A stretch of 15,124 bases of DNA, taken from a virus. The first letter of the stretch is position 1. Every line of letters begins with the position of its first letter. The notes under the pieces were generated by a model. The model was not told where the DNA came from. It searched no databases and was given only the letters and a program-made list of their open reading frames with translations. This document shows, piece after piece, positions 1-15,124 of the stretch. The stretch lies in the UHGV virus genome UHGV-0073333; one strand, given 5' to 3'. The translations under genes and the position numbers were made by a program.

Positions 1-47
1 GGCGTTTCCGGTGGTAGCGTAACCTGCTATCTGAAGGAGGCTGCCAC

Positions 48-242
48 ATGCTGGCTACTACCCCTACCCAAAAACCGCAATTTATCTGGATTATCGCCGC
101 AGTTCGCCGCGATTGCCCGACAATTACCGCCAAAATTCATCATATTGCTGCCGAGTCTGAACGCGATGCTCGCCGTTCTCTGGTGCGCGATCACGTCTGC
201 TTTTTTGCTGGTCGTATCCGCATGGAGGTGGCACATGATTAA
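48..242 (+). CDS. Small hypothetical protein (64 aa), first gene of a translationally coupled operon; possibly Icd-like (weak recollection only)
   Basis: ATG at 48 preceded by AAGGAGG at 34-40; stop TAA 240-242 overlaps next start ATG 235. Confidence 0.55.
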   Translation: MLATTPTQKPQFIWIIAAVRRDCPTITAKIHHIAAESERDARRSLVRDHVCFFAGRIRMEVAHD

Positions 243-453
243 AACCTACGATGTGCATATGGATCCCCTCGAACGCACAAGCCAGATCATCACACTGACA
301 GAAGTGATTAACGACATTCTGGTGAGCAACTCTCCCTCACGAGACGAAAGACTGAAGGCGTTACTCGCGATATTGGATCTCGCCGTTCGTGACGTTCATT
401 TCCTGCTGGAAGGTGGCGAAATGCCAGGAAAAACGGGGGCAACCAATGAATAA
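235..453 (+). CDS. Hypothetical small protein (72 aa)
   Basis: ATG 235 with GGAGG at 224-228; in frame with ORF 145..453; start overlaps upstream stop. Confidence 0.5.
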   Translation: MIKTYDVHMDPLERTSQIITLTEVINDILVSNSPSRDERLKALLAILDLAVRDVHFLLEGGEMPGKTGATNE

Positions 454-640
454 CTCAATTAATGCCCCTCGACTTACGTCCGCACTTCAATTAATCGAGC
501 AAGCAGCGGCTGTCCTGGTTGCTGTCAGTCTTTCGGCTGAAGAAATGGACGCTGCTGATGTCGTGGATGCGATTAAAGCGTGCTCATCTTTGGTTAACGA
601 TGCTCGTGCAGAGCTGGTAATTCTTGGTGGTGAAAAATGA
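446..640 (+). CDS. Hypothetical small protein (64 aa)
   Basis: ATG 446 with GGGGG at 435-439; overlaps upstream stop at 451-453; in frame with ORF 389..640. Confidence 0.45.
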   Translation: MNNSINAPRLTSALQLIEQAAAVLVAVSLSAEEMDAADVVDAIKACSSLVNDARAELVILGGEK

Positions 641-900
641 ATATCAACTTAATTTATCGTCATCCGTGTGAGCTGGAAATTGAATCATTGCTGAGCCGTG
701 AAGAGCCATATCCAGACACATTCACTCTTGCAGATCGCACGACTGAACGGCTTACCAGAGCGCGCACAGGTCTGGTTCATGTGATGAATGAGATTCTTCC
801 ATCGGTGGGAGGGGAACAGGCGACAGTAATCACTAGCTGGCTACAAAAAGTTACCTCTCTGATAGATATCAGTTTAATCGATGCGGAGAGTGCGAAATGA
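637..900 (+). CDS. Hypothetical small protein (87 aa)
   Basis: ATGA start/stop overlap with the upstream gene at 637-640; ORF track. Confidence 0.5.
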   Translation: MNINLIYRHPCELEIESLLSREEPYPDTFTLADRTTERLTRARTGLVHVMNEILPSVGGEQATVITSWLQKVTSLIDISLIDAESAK

Positions 901-1118
901 CCAACATCCAGCTCATTGAAGCACAATGTCGCATCGAACAGGTTCAGACTGTTTTAGGGTTCTGGCTTGAAGGGGCCAGCCCCAGCAACAGAGACAAGTT
1001 AATGATTGGCGCGGTTATGTCACTGCTCAATGGCGTACCAGAAGCTATTCAGGAAGCAGACGAATTGTTGGGCAAATATGAGTTACAGAATCATTCAGGC
1101 GAGGCGAAACATGAATAA
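897..1118 (+). CDS. Hypothetical small protein (73 aa)
   Basis: ATGA overlap at 897-900; ORF track. Confidence 0.5.
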   Translation: MTNIQLIEAQCRIEQVQTVLGFWLEGASPSNRDKLMIGAVMSLLNGVPEAIQEADELLGKYELQNHSGEAKHE

Positions 1119-1713
1119 TTTCTTAACTTTCCATGCAGAAGCAACGCCTGACGGCGTAAACATCATGTACCGCAGCAACGATGGCATGACAGAACGCGTT
1201 GAGGCCGTCTCATATATTGATGCCGTAAATCGTCTGGATGCCGGGGATTATGACGATAAACCAGATGAAGGTATGTCAATACATCTCGCTATAGCCGATG
1301 GCGGCAACCAGGGATATTTCGATTACACATCACAGCATAACGTCATTATGTGGAGATGGCTGATCGCAACAGTATTCATGCTGGAAATGAGAGAGGAAAA
1401 CGGCACTGTCAGCATCATTGATGATACTGGCAATCCTTCCGAAGTGGCTGTTTATTCCAACGGCATCGTCGCCATGCCGCTGTATCCAGTAGCAGAGCGC
1501 CTCGCTATGGCAAACAACATTGAGGGCGCGATGATAGAACGTTTTGGCATCGAGTCTGGCACAGAACGCGCCATCATTTTCTACAGAGCCATGATGGATG
1601 TGGAACAAGGAGCACTGACTCCATTTGGTCGTGAAACGCTTGCTGAACTTCACAACAGCTTTATAGCTGAACTGAATGAAAACGGCATGCCAGCGGAACC
1701 AGTGACGCACTGA
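1111..1713 (+). CDS. Hypothetical protein (200 aa)
   Basis: ATG 1111 overlaps the stop of the upstream gene (coupled); in frame with ORF 1006..1713, whose longer N-terminal extension would overlap the previous gene and is not preferred. Confidence 0.55.
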   Translation: MNNFLTFHAEATPDGVNIMYRSNDGMTERVEAVSYIDAVNRLDAGDYDDKPDEGMSIHLAIADGGNQGYFDYTSQHNVIMWRWLIATVFMLEMREENGTVSIIDDTGNPSEVAVYSNGIVAMPLYPVAERLAMANNIEGAMIERFGIESGTERAIIFYRAMMDVEQGALTPFGRETLAELHNSFIAELNENGMPAEPVTH

Positions 1714-1723
1714 GGATGGAACC

Positions 1724-2065
1724 ATGATTACTAAAAATTTCCGACTGAATGCGCTGGCAAATAAGTATGCGTCGGCACTGTATAACCACATTACCTCCAC
1801 CAGCGGCGGGGACTATTTCATGGTTGATGCGGACGGCGAGGCCGTCCGTGTGGAAATCGTCAATGGAGTAAAAGGCGTTCGCAGCCTGATCGATAGCTAC
1901 ACACTGGCAGCCATGAAAGTGTTCTACCCGCAGTGGGAAACCGTGGGGATCGAGCTTCTTGATCGTTGCGTCACTAAGGACGGATTGACTGACGTCGGGC
2001 GTGAGATATGGCAAAGCATGGTTAATGACATGGGCGCAACTGTAGCGGGAGGTTCTCATGCGTGA
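1724..2065 (+). CDS. Hypothetical protein (113 aa)
   Basis: ATG 1724 with GAGGA at 1712-1716 (7-nt spacer); ORF track. Confidence 0.6.
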   Translation: MITKNFRLNALANKYASALYNHITSTSGGDYFMVDADGEAVRVEIVNGVKGVRSLIDSYTLAAMKVFYPQWETVGIELLDRCVTKDGLTDVGREIWQSMVNDMGATVAGGSHA

Positions 2066-2429
2066 AAATGCAGAAATGGCGCTTAGCTCCGCAATCGGAG
2101 AGCAGGTGGCAAAGATTGCTGGTGCTGTGTGGATTCATAACCTTCATTCTACTGGTGAAGAGAAAATGGCAATTCAGACGCCAGAGGGACGCACCATTAC
2201 TACATCTCTGAAGCCGTCAGATGTTTGTGATCTGATTTGCGCATTCATGTACCCAGCAATGAGGACTGCCCACGGCGATAAGTGGAAACTTGCGACAACC
2301 GCTGAATTTGATATGTGGCTAAACAATGATGGCATGCTGACTGATTACGGAATAACCAAGTGGCAGATGCTGGTTAGCCATATCGCAAACGCTATAGACC
2401 ACGTGGGGTACGGTGATGCGAAACATTGA
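2058..2429 (+). CDS. Hypothetical protein (123 aa)
   Basis: ATG 2058 with GGGAGG at 2047-2052; overlaps upstream stop 2063-2065; ORF track. Confidence 0.6.
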   Translation: MRENAEMALSSAIGEQVAKIAGAVWIHNLHSTGEEKMAIQTPEGRTITTSLKPSDVCDLICAFMYPAMRTAHGDKWKLATTAEFDMWLNNDGMLTDYGITKWQMLVSHIANAIDHVGYGDAKH

Positions 2430-5172
2430 TCTTATCCGTCAGGTTATCAGTGCGTCTGAAAACAACTGGCCTCATGTGCTGGGCTGCCTGAACATAAATG
2501 TCCCTGACTCTCCGCGCCGTCATGCTCCCTGCCCTGCATGTGGGGGCAAAGATCGATTCCGGTTCGATGACAACGGGCGCGGTAGCTTCATCTGTAATCA
2601 GTGCGGCGCTGGTGATGGGCTGGATTTAATTAAACGCGTAAATAACTGCGACACAACAGAGGCGGCGCTTCTTGCCGCTGATGTTCTGGGTATTGATTAC
2701 CGGACAACGGAAACACCAGAAGCCACCAGCCAGAAACGGGAACAACTGGAAACCGAGCGCCAGCGACGCGAACAGGAGCGCCTGAAAAGGGCAGAGAAGG
2801 ACGAACAACAAAGACGGGATACGTTTTCCCGTCAGTTTGATGACATGCGCAGAAAGGCTGTAAACGGCAAATCTGATTATCTGGTTGCGAAAGGGGTAGG
2901 TGATTTTACATTCCCCGTGTTGCCCGATGGATCTCTGTTGCTGGCGCTGGTGGATAAATCCGGCGCAGTAACAGCAGCACAGACTATTACCTCACATGGT
3001 GAAAAAAGACTCCTGACAGGTTCAGCAAAGCGGGGGGCATATCACGCCATAAACGCACCAGAAACAACACAGAGCATCTTAATCGCAGAAGGGCTGGCAA
3101 CGGCATTATCTGCCCATTTAATTCGTCCAGAGGCGCTGACAGTGGCGGCGATTGATGCCGGGAACCTGTTATATGTCGCCCAGGTACTGCGGGATAAATT
3201 TCCTTCAGCACAAATCATCATTGCTGCGGATAACGACCACAGCGAAGGAAGACAAAACACGGGGAGAATAGCAGCAGAAAAAGCAGCTTTATCTGTTTCT
3301 GGATGGGTGGCATTACCCCCGACAGATCACAAAGCAGACTGGAATGATTACCACCAAAAACACGGCATTAAATGCGCCACAGAAGCGTTCAATAAGTCAA
3401 TGTACCAACCACAGGGTAATGGCGTGAAACAGGAGCCACAGACCATTGAGGGAAGCGATTTTAAGGTTATGGATACCGACCCACTGAAACCAAGAATAGA
3501 AAGCCGCGAGGATGGTATTTATTGGGTATCTCCGAGAGCTGACAGCCAGAGTGGAGAAATCATCAATAACGAAAGCTGGTTATGTTCTCCGTTAAGCGTT
3601 ATCGGTACTGGCAGAGACGATAAAGACCAGTATCTCATTCTTCGCTGGCTGTCGTTTGGTTCTGAAACGCCGACAACCGCTGCCATTCCACTGGCTGATA
3701 TTGGTGAACGTGAAGGATGGCGCACACTTAAAGCTGGTGGGGTAAATGTCACGACCAAAAGCAGCCTCAGAGCAATACTGGCAGACTGGCTACAACGCAG
3801 TGGCTCTCGTGAATTGTGGCGTGTTGCTCATGCCACTGGCTGGCAATGCGGAGCGTACATCATGCCTGATGGGGAAATCATCGGAACACCTGAAAATCCT
3901 GTGCTGTTCAGCGGGAGAAGCTCAGCCGCAGCCGGATATACCGTCTTAGGGAGCGCGAAAAGCTGGCGTGATAACGTGGCGCGTCTGGCCTTTGGTAACT
4001 ATTCAATGATGACCGGGATCGGCGCAGCACTGGCAGCGCCATTGATTGGGCTGGTGGGCGCTGACGGGTTCGGCATTCATTTCTATGAGCAGTCGAGCGC
4101 AGGGAAGACCACCACGGCAAACGTGGCGAGCAGCTTATACGGCAACCCTGATTTACTGCGGCTGACGTGGTACGGAACCGCGCTGGGGCTGGCAAATGAG
4201 GCCGCCGCCCACAATGACGGACTAATGCCGCTTGATGAAGTTGGTCAGGGCGCTGATCCTGTCAGCGTTTCACAGTCTGCCTATGCGTTATTTAACGGTG
4301 TAGGGAAACTGCAAGGCGCTAAAGATGGTGGAAACCGGGATCTAAAACGTTGGCGTACAGTGGCAATCAGCACCGGAGAAATGGATTTAGAAACATTTAT
4401 CGCTACTTCCGGGCGAAAAACCAAAGCCGGGCAACTGGTGCGACTGCTGAATATTCCGTTGAGTAAAGCAGTACGCTTTCACGATTACCAGAACGGAAAA
4501 CAGCACGCAGACGCACTGAAAGACGCTTACCAGCATCACCACGGCGCGTCCGGGCGTGAGTGGATTAAATGGCTGGCAGACCACCAGCAACAGGCTATTA
4601 AAACCGTTCGTGATTGCGAAAGCAGATGGAGAAGCCTGATCCCATCCGATTATGGTGAGCAGGTTCACCGTGTAGCCGCGCGATTTGCCATTCTGGAGGC
4701 CGCATTGTTGTTAGGCGAGGTTGTAACAGGCTGGGATGCTCAGACATGCCGTGATGCGATACAGCACAGCTATAACGCATGGTTGCGCGAGTTCGGCACA
4801 GGTAACAAAGAGCATCAGCAGATTATTGAACAAACGGAGGCATTTCTTAATGCCTATGGGCTTAGCCGTTTTGCACCATTTCCATACAGCCCGGCAGATT
4901 TGCCCATCAAAGATTTAGCCGGATACCGTCAGCGTGGAGAACATGACGAAAGCCCAATGATTTTCTACACATTCCCGGCCACATTTGAAAAGGAGATCGC
5001 ATGTGGTTTCAACGCAAAACAGTTTGCTGAAGTGTTGAAAAAAGCCGGGATGCTAACCCCACCAAACAGCGGTCGTGGATACCAAAGAAAATCACCACGT
5101 ATTCAGGGACGACAAATAAACGTTTATGTACTCAATTACCAGCCAGGAGATTATAACTCATCTGAAGAATGA
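2416..5172 (+). CDS. Bifunctional primase-helicase replication initiator, P4 alpha-like (zinc ribbon + TOPRIM + P-loop NTPase)
   Basis: 918-aa ORF; CxxC...CxxC zinc ribbon (CPACGG...CNQCG); TOPRIM signatures (IAEG glutamate, AADND DxD); Walker A-like SSAGKTT; start ATG 2416 (GTG 2413 also possible) overlapping the upstream stop. Confidence 0.88.
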   Translation: MRNIDLIRQVISASENNWPHVLGCLNINVPDSPRRHAPCPACGGKDRFRFDDNGRGSFICNQCGAGDGLDLIKRVNNCDTTEAALLAADVLGIDYRTTETPEATSQKREQLETERQRREQERLKRAEKDEQQRRDTFSRQFDDMRRKAVNGKSDYLVAKGVGDFTFPVLPDGSLLLALVDKSGAVTAAQTITSHGEKRLLTGSAKRGAYHAINAPETTQSILIAEGLATALSAHLIRPEALTVAAIDAGNLLYVAQVLRDKFPSAQIIIAADNDHSEGRQNTGRIAAEKAALSVSGWVALPPTDHKADWNDYHQKHGIKCATEAFNKSMYQPQGNGVKQEPQTIEGSDFKVMDTDPLKPRIESREDGIYWVSPRADSQSGEIINNESWLCSPLSVIGTGRDDKDQYLILRWLSFGSETPTTAAIPLADIGEREGWRTLKAGGVNVTTKSSLRAILADWLQRSGSRELWRVAHATGWQCGAYIMPDGEIIGTPENPVLFSGRSSAAAGYTVLGSAKSWRDNVARLAFGNYSMMTGIGAALAAPLIGLVGADGFGIHFYEQSSAGKTTTANVASSLYGNPDLLRLTWYGTALGLANEAAAHNDGLMPLDEVGQGADPVSVSQSAYALFNGVGKLQGAKDGGNRDLKRWRTVAISTGEMDLETFIATSGRKTKAGQLVRLLNIPLSKAVRFHDYQNGKQHADALKDAYQHHHGASGREWIKWLADHQQQAIKTVRDCESRWRSLIPSDYGEQVHRVAARFAILEAALLLGEVVTGWDAQTCRDAIQHSYNAWLREFGTGNKEHQQIIEQTEAFLNAYGLSRFAPFPYSPADLPIKDLAGYRQRGEHDESPMIFYTFPATFEKEIACGFNAKQFAEVLKKAGMLTPPNSGRGYQRKSPRIQGRQINVYVLNYQPGDYNSSEE

Positions 5173-5194
5173 GCTTCTTCATGTGCGTAGAAAA

Positions 5195-5310
5195 GGTGTT
5201 GGTTCAGTTGGTTCAGTTGGTTCAATTTGTAAAGAGTATTGTTTTATAAGGATTTTATTCTTTTTATTGAACCAACACTGAACCAACAACACGGTATTTT
5301 GAACCAACAC
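5195..5310. repeat. Iteron cluster A: 3 tandem GTTGGTTCA 9-mers, AT-rich spacer, 3 inverted TGAACCAAC 9-mers; ori/crr-like
   Basis: Tandem 9-mers at 5198-5224; inverted copies at 5268-5276, 5279-5287, 5300-5308; 5195-5236 is a perfect 42-bp inverted copy of 13753-13794. Confidence 0.75.
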
Positions 5311-5358
5311 AATGTGACTGAATTGATGCGCACAACACCTGGCTGGCATCAGAGAGTG

Positions 5359-5434
5359 TTTTACGAGACTTTCGTAAAATCCTGTGTACAAGGGCGTGAC
5401 GTTTTTGAAAGTGAGCACTACGAAATTTTCGTAG
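5359..5434. promoter_or_regulatory. Two palindromic protein-binding-site candidates sharing a TTTCGTA half-site
   Basis: TTTTACGA-N5-TCGTAAAA at 5359-5379 and perfect 17-bp palindrome CTACGAAATTTTCGTAG at 5418-5434; same core recurs at 14253-14288. Confidence 0.35.
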
Positions 5435-5628
5435 TTCAAAAAACAGCCTCTGAGAAGTTGTTATGCCTGTTCAGCAAACCATCCGCATAGCTGATCGCGA
5501 ATCAAATTACCAATGGAGCCAGAAGCAAGGGCAGAACTGAAAAGCGCCTGCCGTGAAGAGTAATGCGACACCATAAATATAGTTTTTAGAGTCCATAAAA
5601 AACCTGTCAAAACCTGACACACAGAACG

Positions 5629-5662
5629 ATGCCACCAGCTACTGAGCGGTGGCATTTTTTTG
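5629..5662 (+). terminator. Rho-independent terminator closing the primase operon
   Basis: 8-bp stem ATGCCACC (5629-5636) / GGTGGCAT (5648-5655) followed by a T-run at 5656-5661. Confidence 0.7.
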
Positions 5663-5756
5663 TGCTATTTGTTTCATATTTTGCAATTACGATGATGAAT
5701 ATTGCGATTTGTGAAACTATAATAACTGTTGTTTTATACAGTTCTAAGGGGGCGTT

Positions 5757-5918
5757 ATGGCTATTTCAGTAAAGCAGGTATTGATAAGTGAGAAGCAAAT
5801 GGAAGCGATAAAGAAAATTCAGGAAGAGCAGCGTAAAAAATCAGGAATTGGAGTAGCGCCAACTCTGCATGAAATTGCACGAGGGTTAATAGATAAGGCG
5901 CTGGCAGGCTGTATGTGA
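5757..5918 (+). CDS. Small protein (53 aa), first gene of the plus-strand cargo operon; possibly a ribbon-helix-helix-like DNA-binding protein
   Basis: ATG 5757 preceded by AAGGGGG at 5746-5752; not in the ORF track (below cutoff), translated by hand: MAISVKQVLISEKQMEAIKKIQEEQRKKSGIGVAPTLHEIARGLIDKALAGCM. Confidence 0.5.
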   Translation: MAISVKQVLISEKQMEAIKKIQEEQRKKSGIGVAPTLHEIARGLIDKALAGCM

Positions 5919-5934
5919 AAATGGATGGCATCGC

Positions 5935-6396
5935 ATGGAACTAAAATTTATTGATAACCCTGTGCGATTACAGGCCTTTCTTAACGAGCCAGGCAATACC
6001 GAAAATATTGTTGAGCCGGGGCACACGTACTACATCAAGCCTGATGCGGTATATCTCGGCATCTACGAAGGATTAGTGCTGGCTGGCGTTCATGAAGTGC
6101 GTAACTTCTGGCATAGCGTTGTTGAATGCCATGCGGTGTACGACCCCGGATTCCGTGGTGAATATGCACTGCAAGGGCATCGATTATTCTGCAAATGGCT
6201 TCTCGAAAACTCACCATTCCTTAACAGCATTACCATGGTTCCTGACACCACCAAATACGGACGGGCAATTATCCGTTTGCTTGGCGCTACCCGTGTTGGT
6301 CACCTTGATGATGCTTATATCAGATGTGGTAAACCCGTCGGCGTAACGCTTTATCAGTTAACTCGGCAACAATATAAGGAATTCAGCGAATGTTAA
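5935..6396 (+). CDS. Hypothetical protein (153 aa); occupies the gp14 position of a P22-type ejection cassette
   Basis: ORF track; starts 16 nt after the upstream stop; its stop overlaps the next start (ATGTTAA). Confidence 0.7.
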   Translation: MELKFIDNPVRLQAFLNEPGNTENIVEPGHTYYIKPDAVYLGIYEGLVLAGVHEVRNFWHSVVECHAVYDPGFRGEYALQGHRLFCKWLLENSPFLNSITMVPDTTKYGRAIIRLLGATRVGHLDDAYIRCGKPVGVTLYQLTRQQYKEFSEC

Positions 6397-7043
6397 TTAC
6401 CCACATAGCTCATAAACATCTCAATCGTGCCGTATACGAAAAAGGCGGTGATGGTGGTGCCTCTAAAGCTCAGGCGAAGGCCCAGCAGCAGGCAATTGAT
6501 TTGCAGCGCGAGCAGTGGAATACGGTGATGAATAATCTCAAGCCGTATGCAGAAGTCGGATTGCCTGCTTTACAACAACTACAAGGACTGATGACTCTGG
6601 AAGGGCAGAATAAAGCCGCGAATGATTTCTTTGGTTCTGGTTTATATAAAACACAGGCAGATCAGGCCCGTTATCAGAACCTTGTCTCAGCAGAAGCTAC
6701 CGGGGGGCTTGGCTCAACAGCTACCAGTAACCAGTTATCTTCCATTGCGCCCATGCTTTATAACAATTGGCTTAGTGGGCAAATGCAAAATTATGGAAAC
6801 CTGCTAAATGTCGGGATGAATGCGGCATCAGGGCAGGCAACAGCAGGGCAACTCTTGCAGGGGCTTGGCGCTATTCGTGCAGGTCAGGCGCAGCAGCCAT
6901 CCAGTCTTGCGCGTGGTATTGGTGGGGCGGCATCAGGCGCTTTAGCGGGTGCGCAACTTGGTTCCGTTGTTCCGGGTATAGGTAATGTCGCCGGGGCTAT
7001 TGGTGGTGGGCTTATTGGTCTTGTTGGGGGGCTTGGATTCTAA
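6390..7043 (+). CDS. Gly/Gln-rich protein (217 aa) with a glycine-zipper hydrophobic C-terminus; ejection-protein-like (gp7-like by position and size)
   Basis: ORF track; C-terminal GGLIGLVGGLGF; TAATG overlap with the next gene. Confidence 0.7.
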   Translation: MLITHIAHKHLNRAVYEKGGDGGASKAQAKAQQQAIDLQREQWNTVMNNLKPYAEVGLPALQQLQGLMTLEGQNKAANDFFGSGLYKTQADQARYQNLVSAEATGGLGSTATSNQLSSIAPMLYNNWLSGQMQNYGNLLNVGMNAASGQATAGQLLQGLGAIRAGQAQQPSSLARGIGGAASGALAGAQLGSVVPGIGNVAGAIGGGLIGLVGGLGF

Positions 7044-8464
7044 TGGCGACATGGCAACTTGGCGGGCTGCCTAGCATGGCACCGCAAAATGATAATGCTC
7101 CTCGTTCTTCCGTTCCTCAGCCTGTGCAGTATCAGCAGCAGCCAAACGTAGGTTTAATGGCGCTACAGGGGCTAAGAGGCGTTGCTGAGATTAATCAGCA
7201 GGCACGTCAACAACAGCGTAAAGCAGAGTTTCAGAAAGCATATGCCGGGGCTTTTGAGTCTGGAGACAGAAACAAAATGCGCAGTCTTATTTCTGAGTAT
7301 CCAGAAGAATTTGAAAGCGTTCAGAAAGGGATGGGCTTTATTGATGACGACCAGAGAAATTCTATTGGTCATCTTGCGACTAGTGCTCAAATCGCATCTT
7401 CGCTCGGAACTGGGGCATTTGGAAAATTCATAGCAGATAACGAAGATGAAATGCGTCGCTTGGGAATTTCTCCTGAGTCTGTTGCCGAAATGCATGTTAA
7501 TGATCCACAGGGATTCCAGCGGCTTGCTGGTAGTATGGCACTGTTTTCTCTCGGTCATGAGAAGTATTTCGATATCAAAGATCAAATGGAAGGTCGGGAT
7601 ATTGAGCGTGGCAAGTTGGCAGAAACAATCCGCAGCAATCAGGCTGGCGAAGCACTTCAGGCGAGAGGGCAGGATATTAGCCGAGCAAATGCGTTAACGT
7701 CAGCATATGCACCAACAGCAGCAATGCAGAATTACAATCAGTACGCTCAAATGTTAAAGGCGGATCCAGAGGGGGCGGCGGCATTTGCGGCAGCGGCTGG
7801 AATTAATACAAACGCCAAAAAATTAATGAGTGTTAGAGAAAACGATGATGGCACTGTCACAAAATACTACACAGACGGAAGTGAAGAGCAGGGAAAACTA
7901 AACCAGCCAATATCTGGAGATGGGTTTCGTCCAATAGCTTTGCCAACAGCCCAAAAGATCATGGAAAAGTCGCCAGAAGGGGCTAAAAAAGCTGCTGGAT
8001 TTGCATACAGGGTTAGGGATGCTCTTGATTCAATAGATACACTGAAAGACCAGCTTAGCCCACAGCGAGTGGCGATCATTAATAATGCTTTGGGTAATGG
8101 GACGCTGGCTAACTTAACGCTCAGCCCAATAGAGCAGCAATACGTTGTTAATGCTAATGACGCAATAATGGCAATACTCCGTCAGGAAACAGGGGCATCT
8201 ATCCTACCAGCTGAAATGTCCAAATATTATCAAATGTATTTCCCTCAGCCTGGTGATTCCACAAAAACCATTGATACCAAGCGCCGGAAGATGGAAAACC
8301 AGTTCAATTCGCTGAAAGCTGCTTCTGGTCGAGCTTATGATGCTTTGCGGGTTATTTCAGCAGTTGACAGAGGAACTTCTTCTTCGTCGCAGACATTGCC
8401 GCAATCTGAGCAGGTATCACAGCCAGCAGCCAGCAGTAATTTTTCTTCACTATGGGGTGATTAA
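7043..8464 (+). CDS. Low-complexity Gln/Ala-rich protein (473 aa); ejection/internal virion protein-like (gp20-like by position and size)
   Basis: ORF track; translationally coupled on both sides; no enzymatic motifs seen. Confidence 0.78.
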   Translation: MATWQLGGLPSMAPQNDNAPRSSVPQPVQYQQQPNVGLMALQGLRGVAEINQQARQQQRKAEFQKAYAGAFESGDRNKMRSLISEYPEEFESVQKGMGFIDDDQRNSIGHLATSAQIASSLGTGAFGKFIADNEDEMRRLGISPESVAEMHVNDPQGFQRLAGSMALFSLGHEKYFDIKDQMEGRDIERGKLAETIRSNQAGEALQARGQDISRANALTSAYAPTAAMQNYNQYAQMLKADPEGAAAFAAAAGINTNAKKLMSVRENDDGTVTKYYTDGSEEQGKLNQPISGDGFRPIALPTAQKIMEKSPEGAKKAAGFAYRVRDALDSIDTLKDQLSPQRVAIINNALGNGTLANLTLSPIEQQYVVNANDAIMAILRQETGASILPAEMSKYYQMYFPQPGDSTKTIDTKRRKMENQFNSLKAASGRAYDALRVISAVDRGTSSSSQTLPQSEQVSQPAASSNFSSLWGD

Positions 8465-10143
8465 TGGCTAAAGCATGGAAAGATGTTATCGCTTCTCCAC
8501 AGTATCAGGCGTTAGCACCAGAACAAAAAGCGCAGGCTCAAGAGCAATACTTCAATGAAGTCGTGGCCCCGCAAGCCGGAGAAAGTGTAGAGCAGGCTAA
8601 GCAGGCTTTTTATGCTGCCTATCCACTACCATCAACGAATGAAATAGACCGATCCCAATCAGCAACTCAAAATATTCAACATACATCATCTGATAATTCT
8701 CTTGCGTCAGGGTATGCAAAGTTAGCTACTCAGCAAAGAGAGGGGCTTGAGCGTTCAGCAGAACAGGGAGCCAGTCTTGGGGCTGCGATGCGCGATGCTA
8801 TAACAGGCGAAAGCCGAATGACTCCAGAGATGGAGAGACTGCAAAATGTCGCCTCTGCCCCAGAATTGAACTCACTAAGCATGGATGCCCTAAAGGCTGG
8901 ATGGTCTCAACTTTTCGGCTCTGACGCGTCTCAGGAAAAGATTCTTCAGGGAATGGGGGCGACATTAAGGCAGGATGAGAAGGGGAATACTATCGTTTCT
9001 CTGCCATCAGGTGATTATGCCCTGAACAAGCCGGGTTTATCACCGCAAGACCTGACTTCGTTTCTTGCTAATGCGTTGGCGTTTACACCAGCGGGCAGGG
9101 CTGGAACGGTGCTTGGTGCCATAGGAAAATCAGCAGCTACAGATTTAGCACTACAGGGAGCCACCAGCCTTGCTGGTGGAGAAGATATTGATCCGTTACA
9201 AACGGTAATTTCTGCTGGCATTGGTGGTATTGGTAAGGGGCTGGAAAATACAGCGAGTGCGGTTTCGAGGGCTGTTCGTGGTGATATGTCGCCTGAAGCA
9301 AAGGCTGCTGTCGACTTTGCATCGGAAAGAAATCTGCCGTTAATGACCAGTGACATGCTGAAAGATAAAACCTTTATGCAGAGTCAGGCTCAGACATTAG
9401 GCGAAAGAGTTCCTTTTTTTGGAACCGGTAAGAATCGGCTGAATCAACAACAAGCACGAGAAAATTTAGTCAGAACATTTAGCGATGGTCTGGGTGGCAT
9501 TTCTGATAAACAGCTTTATGAATCTGCGACTAAAGGGCAACAAAAATTCATTGAGGCAGCAGGAAAGCGATATAACCGCATAATTGACGCTATGGGGGAT
9601 ACCCCTGTCGATCTCTCAAACACGGTAAAAGCTATCGACAATCAGATTGCCGTGTTAAGCCGCCCGGGCAAATCTCAGGATAGAGCCGCGGTAAAAGTCT
9701 TGCAGCAATTTAAAGACGATATCACCAGCGGACCAAATGACCTGCGTCTGGCGAGGGAAAACAGAACCGATCTTCGAAAGCGATTTATGGCGTCATCTGA
9801 CACTGTTGATAAAGATACGCTCCAGAAAGCCAGCGATATTATCTACAAGGCATATACGGCGGATATGAAAAAAGCCGTAGCCAAAAATCTTGGAGCAGAC
9901 GAAGCCATTAATATGGCAAGGGTTGATCGCTCATGGTCTAAATTCAATGACATGATGGGAAGAACGCGCGTTCAAAAGGCAATAGCCAGCGGCAAGGCCA
10001 CGCCTGAGGATGTAACAAAACTCGTTTTTAGCCAAAGCCCATCAGAACGTTCTCAGCTTTACAGGCTTCTGGGTGACAATGGTAGGGAAAAAGCACCAGC
10101 AGCCATAGCTGCTGCGTTAGGCAAAACGCACGAGCGGCCATAG
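8464..10143 (+). CDS. Low-complexity Ala/Gln-rich protein (559 aa); ejection/internal virion protein-like (gp16-like by position)
   Basis: ORF track; ATG 8464 overlaps upstream stop (TAATG), GGGGTG Shine-Dalgarno-like sequence at 8451-8456. Confidence 0.78.
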   Translation: MAKAWKDVIASPQYQALAPEQKAQAQEQYFNEVVAPQAGESVEQAKQAFYAAYPLPSTNEIDRSQSATQNIQHTSSDNSLASGYAKLATQQREGLERSAEQGASLGAAMRDAITGESRMTPEMERLQNVASAPELNSLSMDALKAGWSQLFGSDASQEKILQGMGATLRQDEKGNTIVSLPSGDYALNKPGLSPQDLTSFLANALAFTPAGRAGTVLGAIGKSAATDLALQGATSLAGGEDIDPLQTVISAGIGGIGKGLENTASAVSRAVRGDMSPEAKAAVDFASERNLPLMTSDMLKDKTFMQSQAQTLGERVPFFGTGKNRLNQQQARENLVRTFSDGLGGISDKQLYESATKGQQKFIEAAGKRYNRIIDAMGDTPVDLSNTVKAIDNQIAVLSRPGKSQDRAAVKVLQQFKDDITSGPNDLRLARENRTDLRKRFMASSDTVDKDTLQKASDIIYKAYTADMKKAVAKNLGADEAINMARVDRSWSKFNDMMGRTRVQKAIASGKATPEDVTKLVFSQSPSERSQLYRLLGDNGREKAPAAIAAALGKTHERP

Positions 10144-10604
10144 TTCAGAATGCTGTAGATAAGGCGACTGATCCGTCTGGAAATATCAGTGTTGAGAAGT
10201 TTATTAATGCGTTACACCGGAACAGGAAGCAATCAGCAACTTTCTTTAAAGGCGTACATGGAAAGGAACTGGACGGCGTTATTAAATACCTCAACGATAC
10301 AAGACACGCGGCAAAAGCGAACGTTCAAAACTTAAATGGTCAGCAGCTTTATGGATTGTTAGTTGGTGGTGGCATCATAAACGCAGCAGTATTAGCGGGG
10401 ATGCTAAAAACGGCTGCGTTTGTTGTTCCTGCTGCTGGTGCCGTAGGCGGAGCAGCGAAGGCATACGAAAGCCCTGTTATACGAAATGCCTTGTTACGTC
10501 TGGCAAATACGCCAAAAGGTAGCACAGCATATGACAGAGCGATCAGTACGGTCACACAATCGCTCACCAGAGTCGCACAGGCATCACAAAAAGAAGCTCA
10601 ATAA
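10086..10604 (+). other. Open frame of 172 codons with no canonical start, overlapping the 3' end of the 559-aa gene; probable frameshifted C-terminal extension or frameshift-disrupted gene
   Basis: Stop-free from 10086 to TAA 10602-10604; first ATG/GTG/TTG only at 10356; operon terminator sits after 10604, not after 10143; encodes a Gly/Ala-rich hydrophobic segment. Confidence 0.45.
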
Positions 10605-10606
10605 CT

Positions 10607-10631
10607 GGTTAGCCACGGATGGCTAATTTTT
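10607..10631 (+). terminator. Rho-independent terminator of the plus-strand cargo operon
   Basis: Stem TTAGCCA (10609-10615) / TGGCTAA (10620-10626), loop CGGA, then TTTTT at 10627-10631. Confidence 0.55.
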
Positions 10632-11042
10632 GTTCTTTGCTCTCATCCACAGGTAAAGAAGGGCAAGAACAAGACAAAAAACAGAGAATAGATAACCTAC
10701 CTCATATGATGCGCCAAAAAAATTAGCTATTGATACGGGCAAAAAAGCTGAAGCGATCAAAATTGAAAGGCAAAAAATAAGACCAGTAATATAGTTTATT
10801 AAATTCTTAAATGAGAAACGTTTTGCTTGATTTATGGTCTTAGCGAACGATCGCTTAACGACGGATAAAAGCAAATAGATGGCGACAGTTGCTAATGCCC
10901 CTTTCCACCAGTCTGGATATAGTTTTGCGACAATCAGACCAAGGAAAACCATGATGACAGCCTGAGCATTCACACCAACCCTCCCTTTAGCGTTGTTTAG
11001 ATTGGCAATCATCATATATCCAAGACATGGCATTTGGTACAT
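10623..11042 (-). CDS. Small inner-membrane protein (about 139 aa, about 4 hydrophobic helices); start uncertain
   Basis: ORF track 10623..11210 begins at a TTG; first ATG is at 11042; strongly hydrophobic; AT-rich; no clear Shine-Dalgarno sequence. Confidence 0.5.
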   Translation of the reverse strand: MYQMPCLGYMMIANLNNAKGRVGVNAQAVIMVFLGLIVAKLYPDWWKGALATVAIYLLLSVVKRSFAKTINQAKRFSFKNLINYITGLIFCLSILIASAFLPVSIANFFGASYEVGYLFSVFCLVLALLYLWMRAKNKN

Positions 11043-11165
11043 AGCTTGGGTCGGGATTTCAAATCCGCCCCCGTTGATGGGGTCGTTACAGTACGCGCAT
11101 ATCCGCTTTATGTGAAACAGGAAGATTTTTCTGATATCACTGCCACAGCAAAACACCAATTTCGA

Positions 11166-11181
11166 GACAAGTACGCGCGCG
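11166..11181. repeat. 16-bp direct repeat GACAAGTACGCGCGCG, copy 1
   Basis: Exact copy at 11452-11467; partial third copy ACAGTACGCGCA at 11088-11099. Confidence 0.6.
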
Positions 11182-11451
11182 AGGGGTATCAGTTGCAAAA
11201 AATTTTGCAACTACGTCCGACCAATACACACACGATGGCGGGGGATACCATAAAACTGTTCTCTACATGAGACAGAGTGGTGGTGATGTGTTGATTATCG
11301 GCCTATATGCGCACAGGACGCGCTATGACAATGTTTTATGCGGGTACACCAATCACATGTATCTGGTGTGATAAATCGCGTTACATGACCTTTCATGTTG
11401 TGCTGGTGGTTATCACGACGTTCTGAATCTGGCTTTTGTCTGATATTTTGC

Positions 11452-11467
11452 GACAAGTACGCGCGCG
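11452..11467. repeat. 16-bp direct repeat GACAAGTACGCGCGCG, copy 2
   Basis: Exact match to 11166-11181, 286 bp apart, in a non-coding region. Confidence 0.6.
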
Positions 11468-11804
11468 TAACATCGAAATTATCGGATGGCGTATGTTGCT
11501 GGCAAGATAAAGTCGGCGTAATACAAAGGCGTTACTTGATAGCAGCAAGATTACAACAATGGTTGTTGAATTTGAGCGATGTAAGGAATTGATTTAGGGA
11601 GGCGCTGATGGCTAAAAAGTTCCACTACCAGCGGATGAATGCGCCAGCGATGGCCGTTTGGTAGTAAAAGAGGAGCCATTCCTCAATCAGTTGAATACAT
11701 TATGCCAACTAAATGGGTGGGGGCACTGTGTGGGTATTCAGCGGTGACGGTATTTTTTAAGCCAAGGACTATCCGTAGCAGGGGGACTCATTTTGAAATA
11801 TTTA

Positions 11805-12242
11805 TCATATGTAACTTATTATTTTAGATAAAGATTTCCAGTTAAAGAAAAAAGTTATCATTGATATAATCAAATATGCCCCTGCGAGTAGCAGGGCATA
11901 ATAATCCAGAGGCAGATTGCTGACAACAGGGGCAAACATCGAGATCATTGCTAATAGGCAGGCTGTGATCAGCGTAGTTCCTGTATCAAAAAGCCCCTCA
12001 ATAATGCCTTTTAGTACTCCGTTACTTTTTAGAGCGCCTACAATTCCCTTTGAACTATCAAAGCTACTTAGCATGGTGACTGATGCCAAAACAAAACCAA
12101 AGAGAACTCCAGAAATAGTTGAAAGAGCACCAGCAGCCGAAATGACAGCATTGTGATCTAGGTCGTGTAAAAAATGGGCACCAGCAATAGCCATAGCTAG
12201 AGCAAACAATGACTTGGCAGCAAACAATTTCCGAGAACTCAT
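11805..12242 (-). CDS. Small membrane protein (145 aa, 3-4 hydrophobic helices); second gene of the two-gene cargo operon
   Basis: ORF track; ATG with AGGA 7 nt upstream, 12 nt after the stop of the 361-aa gene; AT-rich. Confidence 0.75.
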   Translation of the reverse strand: MSSRKLFAAKSLFALAMAIAGAHFLHDLDHNAVISAAGALSTISGVLFGFVLASVTMLSSFDSSKGIVGALKSNGVLKGIIEGLFDTGTTLITACLLAMISMFAPVVSNLPLDYYALLLAGAYLIISMITFFFNWKSLSKIISYI

Positions 12243-12254
12243 AATGTATTCCTG

Positions 12255-13340
12255 TTACGTTTGACTAACCAAATAGTACTGGGTTAGATACCTAAGGTTG
12301 TCATTCTTTGCTTGTAGCATAGCATTTTTAACGTCAGTATCGGTCGGATACCCATCTGCTTGGATAGGCACCATCTTCTTTACCGTAAGAACTTCGTCTA
12401 CAAGACTTTTCTTCTTTTTATCGCCCTGAGCAACAACATTTGCTTTCTCAAAAGTTAAACGACCATCACCACCAGGGAACTTTTCTAGCATCTCCTTAAG
12501 GCTTTTTTTAACGTCATCCTCAAGCCATCCCTTTGCTTTTCTTTTTAATGGAGAATGTCCGCGTAACGAAATAGTCAGGTGGCTTGAACTGGTGCCTCTG
12601 ATCATCTCAATCATCTGATTCGCGAACATTCCATCGAGTTGATACTGTGCGGCATTGAAGTTTCTTGGGATGGCCACAGAAATCTCGCAGCTTCTTAGAT
12701 TGGATCCAGTTTCGAGTAGTTCTTTGATGCTTTCTTCTTTCCAAATGGCTTCAAAAGAAACAGGGACTCCGCGATCACTGGAGTTGAAAAGAAGGAAGGC
12801 TAAGTCACTATGGCGTGGACCTAAATGATTTAAAGACAATACTAGAATGTCTGTCTGAGGATAATAAATAAAGTATGTACGTTCTGAAAGAGTCTTTGCC
12901 CCGGCTAGAGGGATTTTCTCTTCCACCCACTCTTTATCTGTAATATATGCCAGTGTTGCGCTTTTTCTTCTTCGAGACATGAATCCGAAGTAGGAGCCAT
13001 CCTCGGGTGAGATGTCTAGAAAATGAATTTTAAGTTCTCTTTCACCAAAGTCTGCATAGTGGGTCATCTTGAAGTCTTTAGAACACCGATCATACAGATT
13101 TTTAAAGGCCTCTGCGGTTAACCCCTTGTTACTAGTGCGAATATTCTCAGAGCTTGTGTAAAAGCCCACCCTTACAGATTTCAAACTTTGATCTTTTGGT
13201 GCCACAGTCATTTGAGCTCCATTGTACTCTGCGATAGTTTTTGCACACCTTGAAATCAAAATCTCCATGTCAGTCACGAGAAAATAACTATGGATGAAAC
13301 CCATCAAAGGCATTGAATACAGGTGGCTTTTGAGAATCAT
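12255..13340 (-). CDS. Hypothetical soluble protein (361 aa), no recognisable catalytic motif; first gene of the two-gene cargo operon
   Basis: ORF track; about 40% GC by eye and AGA/AGG arginine codons suggest horizontal acquisition. Confidence 0.8.
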   Translation of the reverse strand: MILKSHLYSMPLMGFIHSYFLVTDMEILISRCAKTIAEYNGAQMTVAPKDQSLKSVRVGFYTSSENIRTSNKGLTAEAFKNLYDRCSKDFKMTHYADFGERELKIHFLDISPEDGSYFGFMSRRRKSATLAYITDKEWVEEKIPLAGAKTLSERTYFIYYPQTDILVLSLNHLGPRHSDLAFLLFNSSDRGVPVSFEAIWKEESIKELLETGSNLRSCEISVAIPRNFNAAQYQLDGMFANQMIEMIRGTSSSHLTISLRGHSPLKRKAKGWLEDDVKKSLKEMLEKFPGGDGRLTFEKANVVAQGDKKKKSLVDEVLTVKKMVPIQADGYPTDTDVKNAMLQAKNDNLRYLTQYYLVSQT

Positions 13341-13689
13341 CCTAACCTGGTGACGGTGGTTCGCATATCCTGATGGATGATCAGTGATTAATCAATGCGC
13401 CAAGCAGATGTGTCTATGTGTTTGTTAATCATTGCATGACAGTAGATCGACATGGGAGATCACGTTATATAGTTGAATTGTTAGGATATCCATGCACCGA
13501 TCAACTGACTAGGCTGATGTGCTTTTTAGCAGGTGCCATATAGTAGTTAGGCGGTTCTGTGAAATGATTACTGTTCCAGCATAACTGCGGCATAAAGCGG
13601 TGCTATATAAGCTATTTGCTGGCGGATTTAGTCTTCACCGTTCATATATGTAGTGACTATTTGACAGAGTGTTAGTTCACGGACACTTT

Positions 13690-13795
13690 TTGTTGGTTCA
13701 AAATGAGTTGATGTTGGTTCAATATTTTAGAAAAAACACAATAAAAACAACGCTCTTTACAAATTGAACCAACTGAACCAACTGAACCAACACCT
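13690..13795. repeat. Iteron cluster B (inverted copy of cluster A); ori/crr-like
   Basis: GTTGGTTCA at 13692-13700 and 13713-13721; three tandem TGAACCAAC at 13765-13791; 13753-13794 is the exact reverse complement of 5195-5236. Confidence 0.75.
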
Positions 13796-13827
13796 TTTTG
13801 CTTATCTATATAATCTGAGAGGCAGAA

Positions 13828-14115
13828 ATGATAAGGGACAGGAAAGCTGAAGAGCTGGAGTCAAAAGGGCTATACCGGAGAGCTGCCGCACGATGGGCAG
13901 AAGTCATGATGCTGGCAAATGGCGATAAAGAACGTGAACATGCAGCAAACAGGCGCTCTGAATGTATCCGTAAGGCGGCACGCCCACCAGCAACTACAGA
14001 CAGATTCGGAGATTTAAGACAGGCAGTTAAGCGAACTCATTCGGCTCTTGGTATGGATGAGGAAGCGAGAGGGTACTTCAGGCGTTATCGCGATAAAGAT
14101 TGCCAGAGACAGTAA
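13828..14115 (+). CDS. Small basic protein (95 aa), PerC-like transcriptional regulator (family assignment tentative)
   Basis: ATG 13828 with GAGAGG at 13817-13822; TATAAT at 13809-13814; N-terminal pattern AEELESKGLYRRAAARW recalls the PerC/Pch family. Confidence 0.6.
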   Translation: MIRDRKAEELESKGLYRRAAARWAEVMMLANGDKEREHAANRRSECIRKAARPPATTDRFGDLRQAVKRTHSALGMDEEARGYFRRYRDKDCQRQ

Positions 14116-14413: not shown

Positions 14414-14814
14414 TCATCGTGCAAATTTGCACTCTGCCAGCCAACGCAATTTCTCGTTGGCGGAAATATCAGGTATTTACTGAACGAACGGTCTACCCGC
14501 CTGTTCAACTACCAGTTGTACATGGCTGCTTTATGTGCAAATGGTGGTGAGAGAAAATTGTTTGGGGGTACTTTTGGGGGTATCTCCAAAGATGTAATGG
14601 GGAAATGTCTTTATATATCAATGTATTTTTATTGTTTGTTTTGTTCCTATTATCGCACCATTCTAACGTCTCCCCAAGTCTACTCAAGTATTTAAAAACC
14701 TCTTATAATCAGTATATTAATGCCCCTTTTAGTCTTTTGACGTCTATTTAAGTACCCCAAACTCTACAAGCAATTGAGGGGATTTGCTGTTCAGTTTAGT
14801 GGAGATACCCCCAA

Positions 14815-15124
14815 GTGAAACTCAATGCCCGTCAAATAGACACTGCCAAGCCAAAAGAGAAGGCTTACAAGTTGGCTGATGGTGGTGGTCTGTACCTCCT
14901 GGTAAAACCTGGTGGAGGAGAATATTGGCGTCTCAAGTATCGTGTAGCTGGTAAAGAGAAGCTGTTAGCACTAGGTGTGTATCCTGAGGTCACCTTAGCT
15001 GATGCTCCTGCAAAACTTGAAGAAGCTAAAAGAGGTATCTCTGGGGGAATCGATCTGATGGAAGTGAAGCGAGAGGAAAAGATTGCCCGGGAAACGCAGT
15101 TAAACAACACCTTCAAAGATATTG
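14815..15124 (+). CDS. int: Tyrosine integrase, P4-type (DUF4102 arm-binding N-terminal domain); 5' partial, continues past window end
   Basis: GTG 14815 with GGAG at 14801-14804; N-terminal KPKEKAYKLADGGGLYLLVKPGGGEYWRLKYRVAGKEKLLALGVYPEV matches the conserved P4-family integrase signature. Confidence 0.85.
   Translation, partial: MKLNARQIDTAKPKEKAYKLADGGGLYLLVKPGGGEYWRLKYRVAGKEKLLALGVYPEVTLADAPAKLEEAKRGISGGIDLMEVKREEKIARETQLNNTFKDI

Follow-up and report, generated by a model that had tools for sequence, protein, structure and literature searches.

The virus genome UHGV-0073333, a stretch of 15,124 nucleotides (hereafter the window), carries homologues of the DNA-ejection proteins of phage P22 within what appears to be a phage satellite. 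A close relative of this element, EcCIMP1, is a 19,963-bp island located at a tRNA-Thr site of E. coli MP1 (Pick, Stadel & Raivio, ISME J 2025; PMC11773190; GenBank OR778291). EcCIMP1 excises only with the P22-like podophage Kapi1, both int and alpA being required, and is transduced by Kapi1 at a low rate. The island leaves Kapi1 titres after induction unaltered and infection of non-lysogens unaffected, and an EcCIMP1-dependent superinfection immunity has been described (PMC11773190). Genes of EcCIMP1 were labelled 'DNA transfer' and DUF2824, and a packaging role was proposed from their position downstream of the primase; unlike in our analysis, they were not recognised as a P22 set of ejection genes (PMC11773190).

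The classical phage-inducible chromosomal islands (PICIs) of E. coli, EcCICFT073 and EcCIEDL933, resemble the element studied here in their int-alpA-primase layout, a helper-induced and AlpA-dependent cycle, a defence/cargo hotspot near the right end and the lack of structural genes (PMC11773190). They exploit cos-type lambdoid siphoviruses and have packaging-redirection genes in the slot that follows the primase, whereas the EcCIMP1-like family exploits pac-type podoviruses and has ejection-protein genes in that slot. In the published tree EcCIMP1 is phylogenetically distant from both islands (PMC11773190). Satellite P4 shares with our element an alpha-like primase and an AlpA-type regulator, as well as Ash and Icd-like genes found in relatives; unlike P4, the element has a podovirus as its presumed helper, not P2, and the P4 genes Psu, Sid and Delta are neither annotated nor detected in it. 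P4 has ori and crr, of which the two separated iteron clusters of our element are reminiscent.

Theft or remodelling of capsids, terminases and tails is known from satellites; to our knowledge, no described satellite supplies genome-delivery proteins, and our full-text search of the literature returned no paper tying satellites to ejection proteins. An initial annotation of the window, made from its sequence alone, had called such an arrangement unusual for known satellites. This is true of the ejection genes, a complete and selected P22-type operon being unreported in satellites, and not of the kind of element, which has been known since 2025.

In P22, particles without gp7, gp16 or gp20 assemble and package DNA normally and fail in its delivery (Leavitt et al., mBio 2024; PMC10883804). 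P22 virions can be built with functional ejection proteins taken from Sf6, L, CUS-3 or HK620. gp7 can be swapped alone, whereas gp16 and gp20 are needed from the same phage, and infectivity of P22 is lost when only one of these two is foreign. Both genes rank among the most variable of the virion, and SieA exclusion can be escaped through changes in gp16/gp20 or with the HK620 set (PMC10883804).

A P22-type ejection operon in the window

Positions 5935-10604 of the window encode homologues of P22 gp14, gp7, gp20 and gp16, with similarity far above chance. Together with a short leader gene they make up six open reading frames (ORFs) on the plus strand (Table 1), coupled by overlapping start and stop codons: ATGTTAA at 6390-6396, at the junction of the 153-aa and 217-aa frames, and TAATG at 7041-7045 and 8462-8466. 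The 217-aa protein scored 215 bits against Pfam P22_gp7 (cut-off 28), and the 473-aa protein scored 197 bits against the Inj_translocase N-terminal domain (cut-off 29.7) and matched PHROG 917 over its full length. The 559-aa frame belongs to PHROG 770, the gp16 family labelled 'DNA transfer protein' (2.9e-112), and aligns with P22 gp16 by BLASTP (4e-53); a Pfam profile search gave no match for this protein. The gp14 family bears the PHROG label 'head morphogenesis', and the window protein is 84% identical to gp14 of Kapi1 and 23% to that of P22.

The satellite cassette has the four families, the order and the coupled starts of the P22 ejection operon (genes 14, 7, 20 and 16; gp11-13 in Sf6), identity to P22 being 59% for gp7, 38% for the N-terminal domain of gp20 and 30% for gp16, with the C-terminal motif YESxxIRNxLLRLANT found in gp16 of both. 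Unlike its P22 counterpart, it stands outside any virion-assembly operon: gp26 is missing on its upstream side, sieA and tailspike on its downstream side, and ahead of it lie a primase, an origin and a 53-aa gene that phages lack.

The initial annotation had suspected a gp14-gp7-gp20-gp16 cassette from gene order and size, and profile searches in Pfam and PHROG prove this correct. The ORF list and the reading of junctions agree with the gene sizes, strand and overlaps it described, and the translations bear out both the enrichment of Ala, Gly and Gln (in gp7, gp20 and gp16) and the Gly-rich, hydrophobic C-terminal tail of gp7. Of its five-gene cassette, four genes belong to P22-type families; the 53-aa gene is not a P22 cassette gene. 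The 559 aa given as the size of the last protein turned out to be the N-terminal part of a frameshifted gp16, the intact allele of which has 701 aa.

An EcCIMP1-like island at tRNA-Thr

A single place in the genome of E. coli ABU 83972 matches the cassette, in the region between tRNA-Thr (beside proA) and a second island with vat. Genes of this region follow the order integrase, AlpA-family regulator, AntA/AntB, DUF4222, Ash, small ORFs, primase, cassette, variable genes and PerC. The satellite's own integrase, located beside the tRNA-Thr, and the AlpA gene (Pfam Phage_AlpA, 7.4e-20) both lie to the left of the window. The element is bounded by direct repeats of the attachment site (attL/attR) at tRNA-Thr and is about 18.7 kb long, the window being its right-hand three quarters. 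There is a single copy of the attachment (att) core TCCTATTATC in the window, and downstream of this core the 3' end of the tRNA and the start of an integrase are repeated. The right-hand ORF of the window consists of an Arm-DNA-binding domain alone and is a pseudogene in ABU 83972; what had been annotated as a flanking integrase is this fragment, which belongs to the next island.

Features of Gram-negative PICIs are present: int beside the att site, AlpA downstream of int, and a primase with an adjacent iteron origin. The P4 alpha-like replication module initially noticed to the left of the cassette is confirmed by its Pfam and PHROG matches (Table 1). Positions 34-7203 of the window align with EcCIMP1 at 98.96% identity; the alignment ends inside gp20 and is followed by patches only. 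The two elements share the tRNA-Thr site between proA and yagU, beside the Vat island, the att core, the backbone, the leader gene, gp14, gp7 and the terminal PerC gene. They differ in gp20/gp16 (439/906 aa with an SLT domain in EcCIMP1 versus 473/701 aa here; 48% identity or none detectable) and in cargo genes, and it is the window copy that has a frameshifted gp16 and a gp7 shorter by 8 aa. Since identity to EcCIMP1 ends inside gp20, we regard the window element as a sibling of EcCIMP1 with another gp20-gp16-cargo module.

Ejection proteins are virion components, and the initial annotation had pointed out that they stood here without other virion genes. Indeed, no capsid/coat, portal, terminase, tail or lysis gene was found in the window or in the whole element. 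Neither were the genes expected of P22-like prophage remnants (gp26, sieA, tailspike, c2/cro) nor a SieA motif found in the element. When the left arm (1-5760) was compared with 50,697 phage records, it had no DNA counterpart, save for ~68% similarity to primase genes. The single match to the cassette in ABU 83972 is a weak argument against a P22-like prophage in the source genome.

Taken together, the data support the assignment of the element as an EcCIMP1-like PICI at tRNA-Thr of E. coli and a satellite of P22-like podoviruses. The first of two readings offered initially, that of a satellite-like element, is upheld by the PICI signature, the identity to EcCIMP1 and the mobilisation of EcCIMP1 by Kapi1. 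Satellite behaviour was demonstrated for this close relative and would extend to the window copy by analogy.

Spread and selection of the ejection genes

The junction of primase, intergenic DNA, leader gene and gp14 was counted as present at a coverage of at least 80% and was detected in 328 of 5426 complete E. coli genomes (about 6%). The same backbone occurs with another integrase at a second site (yicC/dinD), in one case with a different primase type, and elements at this site have the leader gene followed by gp20 and gp16 only. Context in other genera was drawn from homologues of the 53-aa leader protein, found in Citrobacter, Serratia, Klebsiella and Salmonella. Leader loci of the Serratia nevei type read int-AlpA-AntA-Ash-DUF927-leader-gp20-gp16, and those of the Citrobacter portucalensis type have the full gp14-gp7-gp20-gp16 set; a contig scan with gp20 returned one locus only, from Escherichia sp. 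Three satellite lineages contain gp20 and gp16 only: these two genes are always found together, with gp14 and gp7 being optional.

Ejection ORFs were all intact in the related elements examined (10/10). Between EcCIMP1 and a divergent metagenomic satellite (79% identity of primases) the ratio of non-synonymous to synonymous substitution rates (dN/dS) was 0.025 for the leader gene, 0.05 for gp14, 0.09 for gp20 and 0.09 for gp16, with synonymous sites near saturation in this comparison. For gp16 of ABU 83972 and strain C8 the ratio was 0.12, based on 47 substitutions. The ejection operon, whose gene identity, family membership and selection we demonstrate here, is a maintained functional module of the satellite family and not debris.

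Alleles of these genes are mosaic: three unrelated gp16 types were found among four E. coli satellites, gp20 of C8 is chimeric, and the C-terminal part of gp20 co-varies with gp16 type. The nearest homologues in sequenced phages are 67.6% (gp16, phage N7) and 52.7% (gp20, APSE) identical. EcCIMP1 and its helper Kapi1 share 83% identity in gp14, 57% in gp7, 26% in gp20 and 23% in gp16. Judging by these sequence comparisons, satellite alleles form lineages of their own, with no recent capture from known phages.

A Klebsiella michiganensis relative has two other genes behind the leader gene (L091 10248-12649): one encodes a 605-aa protein that resembles, in its C-terminal part, a transglycosylase of the tape-measure or injection type, and the other a protein whose N-terminus is TerS-like. 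We take this as a hint that the post-leader slot is a helper-specific virion-hijack module.

Leader gene and state of the window copy

The 53-aa gene sits ahead of the ejection genes in every relative examined, with dN/dS of 0.03-0.17. Its product had no match in Pfam, PHROG or PDB and no BLASTP similarity to Arc/Mnt of P22 and Kapi1; from the sequence we read it as ribbon-helix-helix-like.

Two of the ejection genes are altered in the window. gp7 is devoid of eight residues, GQNYANNT, which are missing in frame and are kept in EcCIMP1, P22 and Kapi1. In gp16, alignment with ABU 83972, a sequence 99.9% identical to the window in which gp16 is an uninterrupted 701-codon ORF, revealed a 35-bp insertion at 10083-10117 that is an imperfect copy of the bases directly after it and shifts the frame. 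The C-terminus of gp16 is preserved downstream as the separate 82-aa ORF (PHROG 770 positions 586-667). The insertion was found in none of the 412 E. coli genomes matching the stretch, out of 5426 complete genomes searched. No match to the insertion stretch reached 99% identity, and among the matches listed all span 166 bases, compared with 201 in the window. What had been taken for a 559-aa gene is therefore gp16 with a truncation private to this copy, and the insertion is either a private mutation or an assembly error. Because of this frameshift, the cassette of the window copy is probably defective.

pac-like tags and origin-like regions

Exact matches of at least 20 nt between satellites and 80 P22-like phage loci, considered outside the cassette, were nearly all located 1.66-2.2 kb upstream of the portal gene, inside terS. 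There are four terS-matching segments in ABU 83972. A 116-nt segment in inverted orientation (8035-8150 of the ABU 83972 locus L001, about 350 nt left of the window) has 85-93% identity to P22-type gene 3 and spans the position of the 22-bp P22 pac site. A 25-nt tag lies near it (L001 8204-8228), placing both segments ~270-470 nt left of window position 1. The two adjoining tags of the window (Table 1) are 100% identical to two other terS types of P22-like phages. In all, the tags correspond to pac regions of four different terS types, among them the P22, 'MARPTKYQ' and Terminase_2 types, and the pac site of P22 is located within its terS gene (PMC9611059). By sequence, the tags resemble a set of pac-site mimics that would suit the terminases of several helpers, and they presumably act as pac sites. 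Four tags were also counted in the divergent metagenomic satellite, and one of these is identical to terS of Kapi1. EcCIMP1 has no tag for Kapi1 terS, and this could explain the low transduction reported for it. An apparent similarity of the 'Ash' ORF product to phage loci was discarded, since it represents antisense DNA identity to terS genes and not protein homology.

The origin-like block 3' of the primase has an inverted duplicate just upstream of perC, so that the two copies bracket the cassette and cargo. Between this block and the tags, a non-coding stretch at 5405-5442 (32-38 nt) matches P22-like tailspike genes at 97-100% identity, in the 5' part that codes for the head-binding domain. 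Two palindromes, TACGA-N5-TCGTA, are found at 5362-5376 and 5419-5433, the latter overlapping the tailspike-like stretch. No RNA family was detected by Rfam in the window, and no sigma-70 consensus promoter was found in 5100-5960.

Possible role of the ejection proteins

From the constant pairing of gp20 with gp16 and the optional presence of gp14 and gp7, considered together with P22 genetics, we infer that the ejection proteins most likely enter helper procapsids and make up the conduit through which satellite-carrying particles deliver their DNA; we put the probability of this at about 0.55. Helper induction would lead to excision of the satellite, its replication from the iteron origin and its packaging by the helper terminase via the pac-like tags. 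Satellite ejection proteins would meanwhile be expressed and loaded into helper procapsids, much as foreign ones are in engineered P22 hybrids, and, once the next cell is reached, would span its envelope as a conduit for the packaged DNA. Having its own conduit type would free satellite transfer from the highly variable gp20/gp16 type of the helper and could allow entry into cells that block the helper conduit, for example by SieA-type exclusion.

Several points weigh against such a role. Both the presence of satellite ejection proteins in virions and the benefit drawn from it are things we infer. As loading precedes DNA packaging, helper particles would receive the proteins too, and the benefit would not be private to the satellite. 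Transduction of EcCIMP1 by Kapi1 is low, with no effect on helper titre (PMC11773190). A copy with a frameshifted gp16 and a deleted gp7 motif, that of the window, persists in a lineage, which means that the cassette is not indispensable for maintenance. The signal of purifying selection could in part have accrued while the alleles resided in phages. Finally, a contribution to superinfection immunity, the only phenotype near this region, fits an exclusion role at least as well.

A more inclusive reading combines the conduit with the tags: an array of tags copied from the pac regions of several unrelated terS types would serve many helper terminases, and a cognate gp20/gp16 conduit encoded by the satellite, to which gp7 and gp14 may or may not belong, would be placed in helper heads, make delivery independent of helper type and bypass SieA-like exclusion in lysogens. 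We consider this combination tentative, the odds being somewhat against it. If true, the conflict between helper, satellite and host would gain a new layer, in which the satellite puts its own conduit in place of another, and the entry of these islands into lysogens would become easier to understand. In E. coli the family is common, and its cargo includes defence and virulence-regulating genes. EcCIMP1 with Kapi1 provides an experimentally tractable member, in which the role of the cassette is directly testable.

The main rival to virion loading is that the ejection proteins defend the resident cell: non-cognate gp20/gp16 would poison the conduit of an incoming P22-like phage or its docking site in the inner membrane, or co-assemble and lower the infectivity of helper progeny. 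Such an explanation would agree with the strong divergence of satellite alleles from those of the helper, with the absence of a PADLOC match for the window cargo and with the loss of P22 infectivity caused by a single foreign gp16 or gp20 (PMC10883804). However, Kapi1 titres and infection of non-lysogens are unaffected by EcCIMP1 (PMC11773190), and, with a full cognate gp20/gp16 pair supplied, mixed particles would keep functional sets. Immunity could equally stem from the membrane protein or lipoprotein genes directly downstream of gp16, and no mechanism is known by which cytoplasmic ejection proteins would stop an incoming conduit. We consider exclusion unlikely, at roughly the level of an outside chance.

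Participation in packaging or capsid morphogenesis of satellite DNA, as suggested by Pick et al. from the location downstream of the primase, appears less likely still. The slot is indeed the one that holds packaging-redirection genes in other E. coli PICIs (PMC11773190), it contains a TerS-like protein in the Klebsiella relative, and gp14 is labelled 'head morphogenesis' in PHROG. Yet P22 without gp7, gp16 or gp20 assembles and packages, the defect being in delivery (PMC10883804), and these genetics make a packaging role improbable. Packaging specificity is better accounted for by the pac-like tags, and a satellite of about 19-20 kb, roughly half a P22-like genome, would allow headful packaging of concatemers without capsid resizing.

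The second of the initial readings took the element for the remnant of a P22-like or APSE-like prophage, so heavily deleted that genes for replication, ejection and integration alone were left. It can draw on the tailspike-like stretch at 5405-5442, the sole trace of a late operon or immunity region, on the frameshifted gp16 of the window copy and on APSE, the phage with the closest full-length homologue of gp20 in the window; P22, besides, integrates at thrW. This reading is rejected as already contradicted by the evidence: the left arm has no phage counterpart beyond weak primase similarity, the architecture is of PICI type with AlpA, the gene set recurs at other att sites, with other integrases and primases and in other genera, its genes are under strong purifying selection, and its close relative EcCIMP1 was mobilised experimentally (PMC11773190).

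Cargo region and other features of the window

The stretch between gp16 and perC differs between relatives, with AbiD, Abi_2, RnlAB or ImmA-type genes found elsewhere and three other genes, none with a PADLOC match, in the window. The gene that follows gp16 on the opposite strand (window 10623-11210; L003 15867-16304; L004 15047-15442) has a common N-terminus, MIA(N/I)LN.AKGRVGV, and a variable remainder, giving multi-pass membrane proteins in the window and AH21H025 and a soluble protein in C8; a lipoprotein occupies this position in EcCIMP1. Post-gp16 genes are candidates for the EcCIMP1-dependent superinfection immunity. The membrane gene was also considered as a SieA homologue, given that it has the position and orientation of P22 sieA, and was rejected on the lack of a PHROG match; the SieA motif FxRYPxEAxxFNK is absent from all satellites.

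Table 1. Coordinates of features in the window (UHGV-0073333, 15,124 nt)
Feature	Position	Strand	Evidence
Primase/replicase of satellite (Zn-ribbon, Toprim, DUF927; P4 alpha-like architecture)	2413-5172	+	Pfam Zn_Ribbon_Prim, Toprim_3, DUF927; PHROG 1139 2e-177
Origin-like region	5191-5316	.	3x GTTGGTTCA, AT-rich spacer, 3x inverted TGAACCAAC; repeat families D1/D2, inverted pairs I5-I14
Two adjoining pac-like tags	5581-5619 (5581-5602, 5599-5619)	+	21-22 nt each, 100% identity to internal terS stretches
Terminator-like hairpin and T-run	5620-5664	+	Hairpin 5638-5653, inverted repeat I2; ~95 nt 5' of cassette
53-aa leader gene of cassette	5757-5918	+	ORF; conserved ahead of ejection genes in relatives
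gp14 homologue (DUF2824), 153 aa	5935-6396	+	Pfam 1.5e-61; PHROG 651 1e-66
gp7 ejection-protein homologue, 217 aa, in-frame 8-aa deletion	6390-7043	+	Pfam P22_gp7 1.4e-63; alignment
gp20 ejection-protein homologue, 473 aa	7043-8464	+	Pfam Inj_translocase 4.5e-58; PHROG 917 5e-112
gp16 homologue, disrupted	8464-10604	+	N-terminal ORF 8464-10143 (559 aa), insertion 10083-10117, out-of-frame C-terminal remainder 10356-10604 (82 aa)
Intrinsic-terminator-like hairpin closing cassette	10607-10628	+	
Variable cargo region, three genes	10623-13340	-	
Cargo: membrane protein, 129-195 aa	10623-11210	-	
Cargo: 145-aa membrane protein	11805-12242	-	PHROG 8552
Cargo: 361-aa protein	12255-13340	-	PHROG 7651
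Inverted second copy of iteron/origin-like region	13664-13798	.	55 nt, 96% complementarity
PerC-family regulator, last satellite gene	13828-14115	+	Pfam PerC 3e-33
attR core TCCTATTATC, right end of element	14645-14654	+	Same as published EcCIMP1 att core; repeat of tRNA-Thr 3' end
Arm-DNA-binding integrase fragment of neighbouring (Vat) island, outside satellite	14815-15124 (ORF 14815-15123)	+	

The remaining two cargo genes, a PHROG 8552 membrane protein of 145 aa and a PHROG 7651 protein of ~320-360 aa (window 11805-13340, minus strand), recur as a pair in the K. michiganensis relative, where they are located between the primase and the leader gene (L091 7228-8634). The pair, which has no PADLOC match, is a mobile two-gene module.

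The window stems from a near relative of ABU 83972 and not from the assembly of that strain, as is evident upstream of the primase, where a 113-aa ORF (1724-2065) is intact in the window and has an internal stop in ABU 83972, resulting from a single C/T change at position 1931.

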